From an uncultured Candidatus Binatia bacterium (GTDB lineage Bacteria; Desulfobacterota; Binatia; UBA9968; CAXXLF01): a stretch of DNA of 64,000 nucleotides. Shown one piece after another: positions 1 to 13,412 of the stretch (position 1 is its first letter; the number at the start of each line of letters is the position of its first letter). Location: assembly GCA_965218425.1 (NCBI GenBank), contig OZ244621.1:2304001-2368000 (forward strand), written 5' to 3'. The notes under the pieces are model-generated. The model was not told where the DNA came from. It saw only the letters and a program-made list of their open reading frames with translations, and did no database searches. The translations under genes were made by a program, and so were the position numbers.

Positions 1-522
1 GGGGAGGGGGGGGATAACTGTTCTAATCTCTCGGATTTCACTTTCACTAATAGCGGGTACTGGCCCTGGTTTCGCAATTGTTGCTAAATCAAGGTGCTCC
101 AGCAGCAACAAGACGAACTGCGGGTTGCCACGACGGACGATGCAGCCCATCAGATTGTTGTCTATACAGCATGGACGCTCGACCACTCGCCTCTTGTTGG
201 TCAATAGTGCCCCGCCAACTTTAGGGAACACGATTGTTCTAGACGGGAAAATGTTTGCGCCAAGTCTTGATGCGGTACTACGAGCAACGGAGTTATTCCA
301 ACTCCCCATCACTCTGTCGTTATTGGGAAGGTTCATATCGGAGACTTTGAAAAACGGCAGTTCCAGGTTCTGTTGGCCTTGTTCCAAAATTGGAAATCCA
401 GCTCCGCTACTGAAATGCCCTAACCGCTTCAAGGCTATCACTTCCCAATGCGACGGCACATCACCGAGCCACTCGACACCGGAGGGCTTGTAGGCGGGGT
501 GAGAGTGGATTCTGGCAGTCAT
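1..522 (-). CDS. hsdS: Type I restriction-modification specificity subunit, 5' part (runs off window edge; not in ORF track)
   Basis: Manual translation from ATG at 522: MTARIHSHPAYKPSGVEWLGDVPSHWEV...FPKVGGALLTNKRR...VIPPLP. 'YKPSGVEWLGDVP.HW' is the typical HsdS N-terminus. Start overlaps the subtilase stop (ATGA). Confidence 0.92.
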   Translation of the reverse strand, partial: MTARIHSHPAYKPSGVEWLGDVPSHWEVIALKRLGHFSSGAGFPILEQGQQNLELPFFKVSDMNLPNNDRVMGSWNNSVARSTASRLGANIFPSRTIVFPKVGGALLTNKRRVVERPCCIDNNLMGCIVRRGNPQFVLLLLEHLDLATIAKPGPVPAISESEIREIRTVIPPLP

Positions 523-3111
523 GTGAGACCTGCACTTTGCACCGGGACACGAACGGCCAGCCGGTCTCTCACTTCCTGGTAGATTGGAATGTTGATTCCT
601 TCGGCAACTTCCAGCGTCACGGCCAAGCCGAACCGTATCGGAGCAGGTATATCACTGGCATCGGCACGACAGTTGACTTTGATCGCAATGGTGTCCCCGT
701 CCTGGAAGGCCACCGCCCTAGCACCTTCAAGAACCTCGTGCTGAACCGTGCTTCTTTGGACCGCAAAGCCGTCGGCGCAAACGCGGTCGGGTGCTATATC
801 GTATTTGGGATTGAACCAAAGGTGAGCGATCCGATAGTTCTGACTGGTACTGCTAACCGGAGAGATCCATGCGAGCGTAATTGTCAAACGCCTGCGCTCG
901 TTCACAGCTGACAGGCTGGGTGGCAGTGGAAGGATGAACTCAGCTCCTTCGCCATCGCTGAGTTCGCCAAACCCCAACACCGTGACGCGTTGCTCCGTGC
1001 CAGCCATGACCTTCGCGAGATCGACCGAGCCGTATCCCAAGAACCGTCCGAGGTACTCCTTGAGGACTCGGCTATTTTGGGCGTTCTTCAGGGCGGACTC
1101 GTATCGGAATCTAGCATCTGCCCAGTCTGCGCTGTGCACAAGAAGTGCTTTGATCAAAACCACGTCGAAGTCCGTGGGCAGGGGCGTGTCTAGTTGCCGG
1201 CGGAGTTGCTCGATCAGTTCATAAAGAAAGTATGCACCGCGTGCAGCAAGAGCCGCGGCATCGCTTGTGCCTCTTGTGTGCATTTTTCGGTTCAACTGCC
1301 CCGCGTTACCGGGAGTAGCAACGCAGTGTCCAGGAGGGCTAGTAAACCCGTTGGCCTGCAGAGTGGCCTTGGTATGAGGTAGTTCCCATCTTCTCGCCCA
1401 GGAACTGCCTTCCGCCTGGCAGGAAAACATCGGGCTTAATAGCGCGCCGGTATCCTGGTCCATGAGCGCTGATCACGTTCGGTAAATCTGTCCCTACAAA
1501 AGGGTCGATCAGGCGGTTCAGCGAGGGGGATGACGCATCTGCATGTACTGCCCCAATTGTGAGGCCGTTCAGCGTCTCGGCAGGTGATAACAGCCGCCGG
1601 TTACGCGTGTCCATCGCAAGCGCCTTTACCACAGCTCGTTCCCGTTCTTCGGCTGTTAGGGTGCTTAGGTCAGACCTTGGAAGGTCCAACTCAATATCCT
1701 GGAGATGATTGCCTGCACTGACTATGAACAGGATGTTGTACTTCCATGAAAGCCAGTCCAGGAGTCGCGCCCAGGAACTCATCTCACGGATAAGAGGACG
1801 CGTTTGATCGCATATGGACAGATTGATAATGCGAACGCTGAGTGCTGCTGGTGGCTCACCGTTTTCGGTCTCGTATAATCTCCGCACCGACCTATGGATC
1901 AGGTCTATTGGCAGCACATTCGTGGGTATGGCTTCCTCGATGAATCGCCCGGTAGAGTCGCGTCGGGGTTGCATGACCGGTCTCGTGTACAGCGGTTTTC
2001 CTGTCGCATCGCCGTGTTCATTGAGGTCTCCATGACAGATAAGTGATGTCATTGCGGTGCCATGCACACGCTCGTGTGCCTGGTAGGCGTTCTCGTAACC
2101 ATCCGGATCGTCGATGATCAACCGTCCGTCGAGCAGTTGGTGTCCCGTCAGAGGCATGCCGTCGAACAAGGCCACGACGGGGTCTCCCTGGGGCAGCTCT
2201 GGCTTCGGCTCATCCTGAAGAGAATCCGTCTCCTCAGAATCTTCGGACATACGAATCGCGCACTGCCCGACCGGACGCAGGTGCATTATGTCTTCGCACT
2301 GAAGCAACCTAACCTCCTGGAAGGCATGGAGTCGGTCGATGATATCCTGGACTCGGGTTCGGTGTAGTCGTCCCAGAACGGCATGGTAAGCAATGTCAGG
2401 AATGACACATTGCTGGATCACTTCACCGTTCAAGGACGCGATAATTTCGCGAATATTGGATTCAGCCTGTTCTGGGCGTCTGTCATCCGCCCTGAACCAT
2501 AACTCGATTTCGAAAGGAACGTTTTCTTGTCCGTACTGTAGGCGATCCTGCCAATCCTCCATGAGGCCGGTCTCCCGAATCCGATCCTCTGCGTCCCACG
2601 GCCGTATGGTATGGAGGCATTCGAATGCGTGTTTCCATGGAGCCAAGCCCCTGGCAAACTTCGTGTTACGATTCTTCCGCCACTCTCGAAATAAGTTATA
2701 CAATTCCTGTAACGCCTGCAGGTCAGTCATTACAAGGAAGAGTTGGCCTTTCAGTTGCTTGTCCGGACTCTTCTCATCCTCGAAGCCGTAGTCGGGAGAA
2801 ATGTCGTCGAGTTCGTATTCAGCTAACCACTCCAACCCCGACACCTTTTCCACCGCTCGGATAAAGTTCTGTATTGAGCCAATGGTTTCAATCACCAGGA
2901 CCTGTTCAGGTTGAAGGCCAAGAGGATGATCCTGAAGGGCAAGGCGTTTTTTTTCCATGTTCTCTTGAAGGCGTTGGAACTGCGGCTCCAGCCGTTCTGC
3001 CTGTCGTGATGCGTCCGGGATACTAACTTTCCCTCCGCCTCCACCACGTTTAGCGCGTTCAGTGCGGGCCGGTTCAGAAAAGACAAGAAGCGGAAGGTTG
3101 GTCTCGGCCAT
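519..3111 (-). CDS. S8 subtilisin-like serine protease (IetS-like), split by one frameshift near 1375-1385
   Basis: ORF 1339-3111 has catalytic Asp (VVALFDG), His (HGTAM), oxyanion SAGN and IKPD. ORF 519-1463 continues in another frame with catalytic Ser (RGTSDAAA) and LGYG. One extra base in ACT-A-CCT-CAT separates the frames. Confidence 0.88.
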
Positions 3112-3113
3112 GA

Positions 3114-4109
3114 TTAACTGCTTGCCTCTCTACTACTGGACTCCTTGAGTGTGAACCGCTTCTTCCAATGGTACAGGTGCTGTTCAACCATATGCTTAAT
3201 GTTCCCACCCGGCTGTTCCAATACGATTTTTCGGAGGATGTCAGTCCCGAAGTCCTCGACTTCCGCGAAGCTCAAGCCCCGCATTCGCTGTCCGAGACTA
3301 CGCGGGGATAGCCCGAGCGGATGTCCGGTCCGCTTCTCGAACCGATTGAACCACTCCTCAATCTGACTTTGAGTGGGCTGCGGGAGCTCCAATCGAATCT
3401 GGAAGCGGCGCCATACGGCACGGTCGAGAAGTTCAGGATGGTTGCTGGCCGTCACGACCACTACGTAGCTGGGAAGGGCATCGATCTGGAGCAGCAGCGA
3501 ACTCACGACTCGCTTAATCTCTCCGGTTTCGTGCAGGTCACCGCGTTCCTTTCCCACCGAGTCGAACTCGTCGAAGAACAGCACACAGTGGCGAGATCTG
3601 GCGTGCTCGAAGACTTGGCTTATCCTTTGCGCAGTCTCGCCCAGGTAGCTGCCGATGACTGCTTCATAGCGGACTACCATGAATGGAACGCTCAAGGCGT
3701 CGGCAAGTGCCTCCGCCAGAGTGGTCTTGCCATTCCCTGGAGGCCCGGCAAGCAGTATGCGGTTGCGCGGTTCGAGGTTGTACGACCGAAGCAGATCGGC
3801 GCGGTGCTGTTCGGTCACCAGTTCGCGAATGGTTTCCTCAGCATCGGCGGATAGTATAAGATCCTGCAGGCGGCGTACCGGGACAACATCTGCCACGAGA
3901 GGACCTGCCACCGAATGGGACGACCGTGACGCTGGCTGCGCATAGCGACCGTTCTCGATCTGAAGCTGCGCAAGCAACCGATCGGCTAGAATGGTGTGGT
4001 TCTTCGCACGCTCGTCGGCAGCCAGTGCCTCGACGGTCTTCCGGACTTGGCTCTCGTCGCCTTGTCTACTGGCCTTTATCAGGCTCAGGATCAAGTCTGA
4101 TCGTGCCAT
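3114..4109 (-). CDS. AAA+ ATPase (IetA-like partner of the subtilase)
   Basis: Walker A GPPGNGKT, Walker B LFFDEFD, SRH 'ASNHPELLDRAVWRRF', 'GEIKRVVSSLL'; directly upstream of an S8 protease. Confidence 0.92.
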   Translation of the reverse strand: MARSDLILSLIKASRQGDESQVRKTVEALAADERAKNHTILADRLLAQLQIENGRYAQPASRSSHSVAGPLVADVVPVRRLQDLILSADAEETIRELVTEQHRADLLRSYNLEPRNRILLAGPPGNGKTTLAEALADALSVPFMVVRYEAVIGSYLGETAQRISQVFEHARSRHCVLFFDEFDSVGKERGDLHETGEIKRVVSSLLLQIDALPSYVVVVTASNHPELLDRAVWRRFQIRLELPQPTQSQIEEWFNRFEKRTGHPLGLSPRSLGQRMRGLSFAEVEDFGTDILRKIVLEQPGGNIKHMVEQHLYHWKKRFTLKESSSREASS

Positions 4110-4111
4110 GG

Positions 4112-6121
4112 TTATCTCCTGTTACTCTCGGCAGGACGGTTAGACGTTTCGGCTGCCATAATCTTCTGTAGCAACCCCTCGGTTTCCTTCTCCACTGCCA
4201 GAATATCCGCCCGGATCTCTTCCAGCGTGCGCAGCGGCTGCGGCTTGTAGAAGTAGCGGGTGAAGCTGATCTCGTAGCCGGTCTTGACGCTCGCCGGGTC
4301 GTACCAGGCGTCAGGGGCATAGGGCAGCACCTCGCGGCGAAGGAATGCTTCAATTCCGCCTTCCTCCAACAGCGGCGCCTGCTCGGTGTCCCGCAGGTCG
4401 GTGTCCGGCTCGTACTCGACGACAGCCGGCTTGCCTTTGACGGTCGCCTCGAACAGGCCGCGCAGGGGGTCGGGCTCGACGCCCTTCCTGTGGATCTTCT
4501 TGATGACGGGCGGCGCGCTCTCGTCCCTCTCGGCGGTCTCCTTGAGCGCCTTGATCTCCTTCGGCGCGTAGACGCGGTCGGGGTCTATCCCCGTGAGCCG
4601 GAGGGGCCGCTCGACCGTCACCTTCCGATACCCGAAGGCGGCGTTCGGGAAGATCTTCGACTGCTCGGTCTCCTCGAAGGCCAGGAACGTGTCGCAGATG
4701 CGCTGGATGTCCTCGTCGGACAGCTCGCAGTTCTTCTTGCCGAGGTTCTTCCGGAGCGGCTTGTACCAGGGCGCGGCGTCGATGAGCTGGACCTTGCCTT
4801 GGCGATGGGCGGGTTTCCGGTTGGTCAGCACCCAGATGTAGGTGGCGATGCCGGTGTTGTAGAACATGTTGAGCGGCAGCGCGACGATCGCCTCCAGCCA
4901 GTCGTTTTCGATGATTCAGCGGCGGATGTTGCTCTCCCCCTGACCGGCGTCTCCGGTAAAGAGCGACGAGCCGTTGTGGACCTCGGCGATGCGGCTTCCC
5001 AGAGGGGCGCCGTGCTTCATCTTCGAGAGCATGTTCGCCAGGAACAGCATCTGACCGTCGCTGGAGCGGGTGATGAGCGAGTACTCGGCATCGCCGCCGT
5101 GTTCGATCAGAAAGCGCCGGTCCTTGATACCCTCCTTGCCGCCCAGGCGCTCCAGGTCGCTCTTCCAGCTCTTGCCGTAGGGCGGGTTGGAGAGCATGAA
5201 GTCGAACTCGCGGGACGGAAAGGCGTCGTTGGAGAGCGTCGAGTGTTCCGGCCCCCCGATGATGTTGTCGGCGGCTTCCCCCTCGCCCTTGAGGAGGAGG
5301 TCAGCCTTGGCGATGGCGTAGGTCTCGGCGTTGATCTCCTGGCCGTAGAGATGGGTGGCCGCCTGCTTGCCGCGCTGCCCGGCAATCTGCGTCAACGCCT
5401 CCTCGGCCACCGTCAACATGCCTCCGGTGCCGCAGGCGCCGTCGTATACCAGGTAGGTCCCGGAGTCGATCCGGTCGGCGACAGGCAGGAGGACCAGCTT
5501 CGCCATGAGCTGCACGGCATCGCGGGGGGTCCAGTGCTCGCCGGCCTCCTCGTTGTTCTCCTCGTTGAAGCGGCGGACCAGCTCCTCGAAGACCGTGCCC
5601 ATCGCGTGGTTATCGAGGCCGGGGTGTTTGATCGACCCGTCGCCGTGGAGGACCGGGTGCGGACTCAGGTTCACGTCCGGCGAAAGGAACTTCTCGATCA
5701 GCGTGCCGAGGGCGTCGGCCTTGGACAGGCGGGGGATCTGGTTCCGAAACTCGAACTTCTCCAGGATGTCCTGCACGTTCGGCGAGAAGCCGTCGAGATA
5801 CGCCTCGAAGTCGGCCTTGAGCTGCTGTTGGCCGGCGCGGGCCTTGAGGTCGGGCAGCGTGAACTTCGATGTGTTGTGGAACGCCTGGCCGGCGGCCTGA
5901 CGCAGTGCCTGGTCCTGGTGGATGATCTTCGCCTGGTCGAGCGAGGCCTTCATCTCCAGCACGGCCGGCTTGCTCGGCTCCAGGAGGGAGTCGAGCCGCC
6001 GCAGCACGGTCATGGGCAAGATCACATCCCGATACTTGCCGCGGACGTAGAGGTCTCGCAGCACGTCATCCGCGATGCCCCAGATGAAGTTGGCGATCCA
6101 GCCGAGTTGAGATTGGTCCAC
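4112..6121 (-). pseudogene. hsdM: Type I RM N6-adenine methyltransferase subunit with one in-frame TGA at 4916-4918
   Basis: N-terminus 'IANFIWGIADDVLRD...KYRDVILP', motif I YDGACGTGGML, motif IV NPPY. ORFs 4916-6172 and 4112-4867 are in the same frame: ESNIRR*IIENDWLEAIVALP, where W is expected. GTG start at 6121 is inferred. Confidence 0.9.
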
Positions 6122-12880: not shown

Positions 12881-13064
12881 ATCTACTTTTGAGGACCAAG
12901 GTCTGAATGCCAGACCTATTCATCGGATATTTCACGTCTCAAATAGTGACACAAGGAACCGATTCCCGGTCAACCGGACGTTCAGCTTCAGCCAAGTTTC
13001 GAAGCGGCGTTGCCAAGGAGACTTCTCGCCTCCTCGAAGGATGTAATGCGAAGAGGACCGAGCA

Positions 13065-13412
13065 CGCCGGCGTCTCGGCGGCCTCCGTTTGGCAGAAGAA
13101 AAACCGCCGGCTATCGAACTCCTCCGGGTCCGTCCAGTGCTCCAACAGTCGCTTGGTAATTCCCGTAACGCCCGGATACCCGGCTTCGCGCCATGCCCGC
13201 ACGCACGGCCGAATCCGGTTGACCAGAGGGATCTCGATGAAATGGCCCGGGTCATCGAATGATCGGGAGCCCTCCGAGGCAATGACGTATCCGGCCGGGC
13301 GACGACCTTCTGCAAGATCGAACAGATGCGTCGTCCGATCGTAACTCCAGTGCCGGGCCGGCTCCTCGTAGGGTGAGTTGACGATCAGCTGGTCAATAGT
13401 TGTTCGCGCCAT
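13065..13412 (-). pseudogene. N-terminal fragment of a type III restriction (Res) subunit
   Basis: IDQLIVNSPYEEPARHW...GRRPAGY...LVNRIR..VRAWREAGYPGVTGITKRLLEHW...FFFCQ.EAAET; resemblance ends before the helicase motifs. Confidence 0.8.

Follow-up and report, generated by a model that had tools for sequence, protein, structure and literature searches.

A pseudogenised IetAS pair nested between hsdM and hsdS of a type I restriction-modification operon in a Candidatus Binatia bacterium

We looked at the left end of a 64,000-nucleotide stretch of DNA (the window) from an uncultured Candidatus Binatia bacterium (GCA_965218425.1, contig OZ244621.1, positions 2,304,001 to 2,368,000), where an initial annotation, made from the sequence alone, had placed an AAA ATPase gene and a subtilase gene inside a type I restriction-modification (RM) operon. 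For this, we used PADLOC, which names the pair IetA and IetS; the identification as AAA ATPase and subtilase holds, and Pfam results agree with the PADLOC calls at all four genes of the group (Table 1). The IetA model was matched with an E value of 2e-146. The ietS gene as a whole spans 3111-519 on the minus strand, in two frames. Its 5' part matched model PDLC04233 with E 6e-222 (profile positions 1-570 of 855) and its second half with E 1e-93, both parts being consecutive on the 855-position model; the older IetS models PDLC02197-02202 gave E 1e-19 or weaker. The four genes at 1..6121 are co-oriented on the minus strand in the order hsdM-ietA-ietS-hsdS, and their tight junctions are real: 2-nt gaps separate hsdM from ietA and ietA from ietS, and an ATGA overlap joins ietS to hsdS. 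The nesting of the pair inside the RM operon holds here and the order recurs in distant taxa, so the gene arrangement is not due to chance. Moreover, hsdM, hsdS and hsdR all lie within one operon. A promoter and terminator scan gave a signal no better than chance.

Table 1. Features at the left end of the window.
Feature	Position	Strand	Basis
hsdM, type I methyltransferase, with in-frame TGA	4112..6121	-	PADLOC MTase_I PDLC03029; Pfam
hsdM 3' tail, travels with ietAS	4112..4376	-	blastn against L024, GC3
ietA, intact 331-aa AAA+ ATPase, predicted antitoxin	3114..4109	-	PADLOC IetA, Pfam AAA
ietS 5' part: N-terminal prodomain region and catalytic Asp317/His350; 590-aa frame	1379..3111	-	
ietS 3' part, shifted frame: catalytic Ser and C-terminal beta-sandwich	519..1378	-	PADLOC IetS profile 569-851/855
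hsdS 5' part, type I specificity subunit, continues past window edge	1..522	-	PADLOC Specificity_I

This copy of the locus is broken. It is a pseudogenised member of the IetAS family, and among hsdM, ietA, ietS, hsdS and hsdR only ietA and hsdR are intact. The protease had been credited with a full Asp/His/Ser triad; this was not found, since Asp317 (codon 2163-2161) and His350 (2064-2062) lie in the 590-aa frame and the catalytic Ser (1265-1263) in another, beyond a frameshift of one base near 1378. Contigs of runs X7 (1-2545), possibly the source sample of the window, and X8 (966-3423) carried the ietS allele of the window with zero differences, and a sequencing error was therefore rejected as the origin of the frameshift. 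Contigs of runs X9 and X12 (depth 2) had one base fewer at 1378. An intact ietS allele of 857 aa (P0122) is 95-97% identical to the window copy, and 95% identical to its 5' part. In addition, Gln131, otherwise invariant, is Leu in the window IetS, and the nearly invariant Asn after the Ser is replaced by Asp, substitutions that are consistent with relaxed selection. In hsdM, the in-frame TGA lies at 4918-4916. This stop is probably real rather than a sequencing error, since a 401-aa product on a separate 493-kb contig (P0139, 400 of 401 residues identical) ends at the same place; at position 4916 the run contigs read an intact codon, with no long contig of this organism listed there. Finally, an IS3-family element interrupts hsdS about 470 bases outside the window (locus L001). 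With the hsdM stop and the split hsdS, intact reading frames for a functional type I RM system are not present at this locus.

Concerning IetA, the Walker motifs had been called intact and they are (Walker A GPPGNGKT, Walker B LFFDE). In a 67-row alignment they were invariant, the DE of Walker B included, as were the paired arginines, and the aromatic pore-loop residue was nearly invariant. Sequence matches of IetA in the PDB were to p97/Cdc48/VAT, and a fold search with the model of the IetA homolog from L012 returned the ATPase domains of p97, PAN and FtsH. From these models, IetA is a predicted unfoldase-type AAA+ protein (p97/Cdc48/PAN type) with an N-terminal three-helix segment. An intact IetS homolog (P0002, 81% identical) was modelled confidently (pLDDT 88.8, pTM 0.91). 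In this model, alpha/beta domains at about 69-171 and 197-280 precede the subtilase core, which is followed by a C-terminal beta-sandwich. Its best matches were KP-43 (Z 25.4, root-mean-square deviation (rmsd) 3.4, 381 aligned) and pro-Tk-SP (Foldseek E 2e-17; Z 22.1, rmsd 6.7, 458 aligned). The second N-terminal domain aligned with propeptides of subtilases; for the first, this search was hardly a test. No signal peptide was evident by eye on IetS, and no PDB chain matched the IetS profile by sequence. The ESM Atlas gave a lead, and a lead only, to Pfam Y4kK_N (score 0.88). In Zavarzinella formosa (L068:8987-12688), IetA and IetS are fused in a single 1233-aa open reading frame (ORF) with a proline-rich linker, which is a natural single-chain construct for structure work.

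We then compared how the two genes decay. Among 131 loci spanning both genes whole, ietS was broken beside an intact ietA in 16, and the reverse was found in none after inspection; one locus (L094) flagged for a broken ietA was rejected as an alignment overrun. From gene length alone, 28% of the breaks would be expected in ietA, and 0 of 15 were observed there once a duplicate was merged (p 0.008). Another locus, L073, in which the 5' end of ietA is missing and ietS is split, fell outside the filter and, if counted, gives p 0.02-0.03; assembly errors may also contribute. Because ietS breaks before ietA, in the window as elsewhere, the pattern fits a protease in the role of toxin and an ATPase in that of antitoxin.

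Two scans with the IetS alignment confirmed 477 and 409 relatives, of which the best 79 and 80 loci were used. Of these 159 loci, 138 covered the N-terminal part of IetS sufficiently, 110 remained at 90% identity and 68 had at least 3 kb on both sides. Neighbours were labelled from PADLOC results for 237 representative ORFs and by BLAST against these, contexts were assigned by hand, and an all-against-all BLAST was made on 1382 non-overlapping ORFs. Type I RM contexts comprised 15 loci in the hsdM-hsdS slot (between the two genes or after hsdM), 5 in the hsdS-hsdR slot and 6 at an operon edge, the last class including one divergent and one fragmentary case. The other contexts were BREX-3 (6), Hma/DUF499 (5), IIG/PglX-like (4) and type III RM (3), with none of these in 24. 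Core genes flank both sides in 27 of the 68. The initial annotation had asked whether the gene order is conserved: the strict order hsdM-ietA-ietS-hsdS does recur, in 9 of the 68, and the copies in the hsdM-hsdS slot form no single clade. Homologues occurring mostly without RM genes were to speak against its functional inference, and this was only half the case, 26 of the 68 being in or beside type I RM and 44 in or beside a methylation-based system of some kind. As for plasmids, none of the six relatives inspected (33-40% identity; of 83 records) had an annotated hsd, mod or BREX gene in the surrounding 6 kb; one of them had a lone restriction endonuclease 3.5 kb off on the opposite strand. 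At the other loci of the window's hsdM family, ietA was found in 0 of 25 (flanks of 1.5 kb at most, some truncated where contigs end), and hsdM was directly followed by hsdS in 10 and by SoFic in 3. At one of these three, L189, ietA lies 1.85 kb past hsdM, behind SoFic. In Meiothermus, DUF262 fills the hsdM-hsdS slot, overlapping the hsdM stop, and darTG lies behind hsdS. IetA itself was present in 6 of 41 related genomes, its own included.

In the IetS tree, these contexts interleave. The nearest rows to the window were L024, a type I locus, and then two type III loci, and a single-linkage group at 90% IetS identity held five BREX-3 loci together with the type I locus L141. An approximately unbiased (AU) test rejected one clade of hsdM-hsdS copies (13 against 14 others; p 1.2e-5, at a cost of 375 log-likelihood units), its 27 rows having been picked after the first tree was seen. 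Mantel distance correlations over 21 loci were 0.76 for IetA with IetS, 0.28 for HsdM with IetS (p 0.05) and 0.13 for HsdM with IetA. IetA therefore tracks IetS far better than HsdM tracks either, which goes against the Hsd-linked function that had been proposed for the pair. When parts of hsdM were compared with IetA (n=10), the tail gave r 0.40 and the body r 0.20. Near-exclusive residence in one type I RM family, or co-descent with it, as expected of a PrrC-type effector, was not found.

A route by which the pair may move appeared when L024 was compared with the window by blastn. The bodies of the two hsdM genes are 92.7% identical, and the last 260 bp or so of hsdM form one block with ietAS at 96.6%. 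At L024 the hsdM tail is duplicated as a 218-bp direct repeat (88% identity), one copy ending the full hsdM and the other leading into ietA behind a SoFic gene. Direct repeats of methyltransferase 3' ends, 79-91% identical, likewise bracket cargo at L024, L014 and L116 (type I) and at L138 and L151 (BREX-3); at L014 and L116 the 5' end of hsdS is also repeated around the cargo. Recombination at the duplicated 3' ends of methyltransferase genes is thus the likely way for cassettes to come and go, and would account for the tight junctions. Cargo bringing along the tail of the upstream gene would inherit the junction, and 2-nt gaps need not mean functional coupling; tight junctions were also seen with other cargo in the same slot. 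Base composition was examined as well, hsdM having been described as more GC-rich than the inserted pair. This stood (GC 0.64 against 0.54-0.58), and the idea of the pair as a compositional oddity did not. The G+C content at third codon positions (GC3) was 0.90 in hsdM, 0.91 in hsdR, 0.58-0.66 in ietA and ietS and 0.56 in hsdS; the long ORFs of the genome (n=947) have a median of 0.63, and 0.2% of them reach 0.89. A foreign low-GC origin of the pair was rejected: the pair matches the genome median, and it is hsdM and hsdR that stand out. GC3 was higher in hsdM than in ietS at each of 20 related loci, hsdS being about as low as ietS. In the window, hsdM GC3 drops to 0.5 over the final 20 codons.

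Beyond the left edge, an intact hsdR of 998 aa (L001:6505-9501) lies about 4 kb past the hsdS/IS3 break. Scars of earlier cargo fill the region between hsdS and hsdR (L001:9520-11320): a darT stub of 44 aa, a darG stub of 65 aa, a C-terminal stub that is PDC-S18-like, part of a second hsdS, and a DUF433 gene beside which lies an ORF of 68 aa. The IS3-family element (L001:11760-13030) occurs at 21 other places in the genome (G000), giving 22 copies that are more than 99.5% identical and represent a recent expansion. This genome also has a second type I operon, which is intact (L200:800-9040, that is G000:C1:1686800-1695040) and carries Septu-like PtuA/PtuB between hsdS and hsdR. Elsewhere in the window, a 157-aa ORF (12939-13412, minus strand) looks, as judged by eye, like a type III restriction subunit's N-terminus; out-of-family sequence follows this part, and the ORF may be a remnant.

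The pair shares with the IetAS systems of pTiC58, E. coli, B. cereus and SGI1 (SgiAT) an AAA ATPase gene lying immediately upstream of one for an S8 protease, matches to both PADLOC models and toxin-first decay. It differs from them in belonging to a divergent subfamily with an IetS of about 860 aa, best matched by PDLC04233, and in the frameshift of the window copy. Such pairs have been reported as toxin-antitoxin (TA) systems on pTiC58, on SGI1 and in Mycoplasma (PMC5006074; 10.1101/2021.01.21.427616; PMC3339403), those of pTiC58 and SGI1 being stabilising (PMC5006074). B. cereus ietAS cloned alone is described as abortive and is made toxic by YosG of phage SPbeta (10.1101/2022.08.27.505566). 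A variant with a helicase (ietHAS, Liu-DS4) is reported to stop T7 and to require the helicase, so that IetAS can come to need a neighbouring gene as its regulator; the mechanism of IetAS is stated there as unknown (PMC13069673). That partner was tested by mutation, whereas in the window no helicase abuts the pair. At L057, L058 and L049, as in ietHAS, IetAS of this subfamily lies within 200 nt of an SNF2/DrmD-like helicase. Embedded genes are frequent in type I RM, BREX and Hma systems, 96.7% of them co-oriented (10.1101/2024.01.29.577857), and the window pair resembles those described there for type I RM, BREX, DISARM and Hma in being co-oriented cargo between core genes of the same host systems. 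PrrC in EcoprrI is likewise a toxic effector within a type I RM operon, reported to reside nearly always in type I RM and to be silenced by the Hsd complex (10.1101/2024.01.29.577857); unlike PrrC, the window pair comes with a putative antitoxin of its own and has many other host systems. The term 'iet' is absent from the main text of that survey, whose figures or supplements may list ietAS, and from the text of a BREX survey (PMC12839542). We found no description in the literature of ietAS between hsdM and hsdS, although the figures and supplements of 10.1101/2024.01.29.577857 may hold one.

Altogether, we read the pair as a self-contained IetAS toxin-antitoxin or abortive-infection cassette embedded as cargo in the hsdM-hsdS slot, with a probability of roughly 0.65. 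The cassette is likely an exchangeable passenger and not a dedicated guard. The locus brings known parts together in a known type of position; the arrangement is real and recurrent, and is here pseudogenised. In its intact form, IetS would be a cytoplasmic pro-subtilase with two predicted ferredoxin-like N-terminal domains, a catalytic domain and a beta-sandwich. To judge by tested relatives, IetA, a p97/PAN-type unfoldase, would keep IetS silent, perhaps by threading the protease or by a hold on its prodomain. Release of the protease would come from a phage protein or from a disturbance of IetA that the phage causes, and freed IetS would kill the cell or stall its growth with no need of the Hsd proteins. 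The host operon would provide promoter, ribosome-binding site and co-transfer, and recombination at the duplicated methyltransferase ends would move cassettes in and out. Several points weigh against this reading. The link with methylation-based systems is strong: 44 of the 68 relatives lie in or beside one, and a core gene is at most 300 nt away in 34. The hsdM-ietA junction is kept to 2-3 nt in many loci, and the long co-residence of ietAS with hsdM is therefore real. Context carries phylogenetic signal (36 changes, where 300 shuffles gave at least 50), as does the hsdM-hsdS context alone (15 against at least 18), and in the 10 loci where a full hsdM directly abuts ietA there is a weak HsdM-IetA correlation (r 0.20-0.40, p 0.03-0.04). 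The relatives are best hits, which biases the sample to close ones, and we found no literature test of members of this IetS subfamily. The interleaved tree, this residual signal and the correlations, taken together, point to ietA and ietS being one unit, long resident yet repeatedly changing its host system.

The same association could mean that IetAS guards methylation-based defences in general, sensing common sabotage (a DNA mimic, or depletion of S-adenosylmethionine (SAM)) without binding the host system, and is thereby selected inside type I and III RM, BREX-3 and Hma operons. We consider this unlikely. So construed, the pair would be a portable proteolytic counterpart of PARIS and PrrC, an AAA+ sensor that detects shared saboteurs and unleashes a pro-subtilase, and it would have been recruited repeatedly behind the methyltransferase gene of type I, III, IIG, BREX-3 and Hma/DUF499 systems, a history that we find equally doubtful. 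The 44 relatives in or beside methylation systems, often right behind the methyltransferase gene, speak for it. Phages T7 and T3 carry Ocr and SAM lyase. The ietHAS variant stops T7, and E. coli ietAS is reported to co-localise non-randomly with type III RM and to act in synergy with Zorya II against T3 (10.1101/2022.08.21.504612). Against this stand the 24 relatives and the six inspected plasmid copies outside such systems, as well as the one published trigger, YosG, a protein of unknown function (10.1101/2022.08.27.505566). Many unrelated systems also occupy the same slots, as they would a neutral insertion sink.

More specific is the guard of the initial annotation, firing when the RM complex is inhibited. 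In a PrrC-like form, IetA or IetS would bind HsdM, HsdS or HsdR. The strict order in 9 of the 68, the conserved junctions and the weak HsdM correlation would agree with it, and so would the fact that ietS, hsdM and hsdS are all broken here. However, 9 of 68 is few for such a guard, the hsdM-hsdS copies are not one clade, the closest relatives sit in type III RM, and both BREX and another type I family contain near-identical IetS; the subfamily is found at other type I slots, in type III, IIG, BREX-3 and Hma/DUF499 systems, or alone. The near-exclusivity of PrrC to type I RM has no counterpart, and we regard such a guard as quite improbable. Somewhat short of that, yet still improbable, is an addiction module only, which would stabilise the RM locus or a mobile island by post-segregational killing with no anti-phage role here. 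The stabilising pTiC58 and SGI1 systems and the loss of toxin before antitoxin suit this, whereas other ietAS are abortive-infection systems (PMC13069673; 10.1101/2022.08.27.505566), the two roles not being mutually exclusive. Finally, the pair had also been proposed as a proteolytic regulator of Hsd subunits, that is, an ATP-dependent protease in restriction alleviation, for which ClpXP acting on EcoKI HsdR is a precedent. An unfoldase-type AAA+ protein paired with a protease inside the operon is what this would call for, but most operons of this hsdM family lack the pair and the pair occurs without hsd genes. Subtilases are not known to act as chambered proteases that an unfoldase feeds, and we give this proposal very little credit.

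Beyond the window copy itself, one IetAS subfamily passes between at least five kinds of methylation-based defence, and the duplicated methyltransferase 3' ends would offer a simple route for the stacking of cargo in these slots. Whether embedding is functional or a safe landing site was left open by Payne et al. (10.1101/2024.01.29.577857), and the near-identical IetAS pairs in BREX-3 and type I RM are matched constructs for this question.

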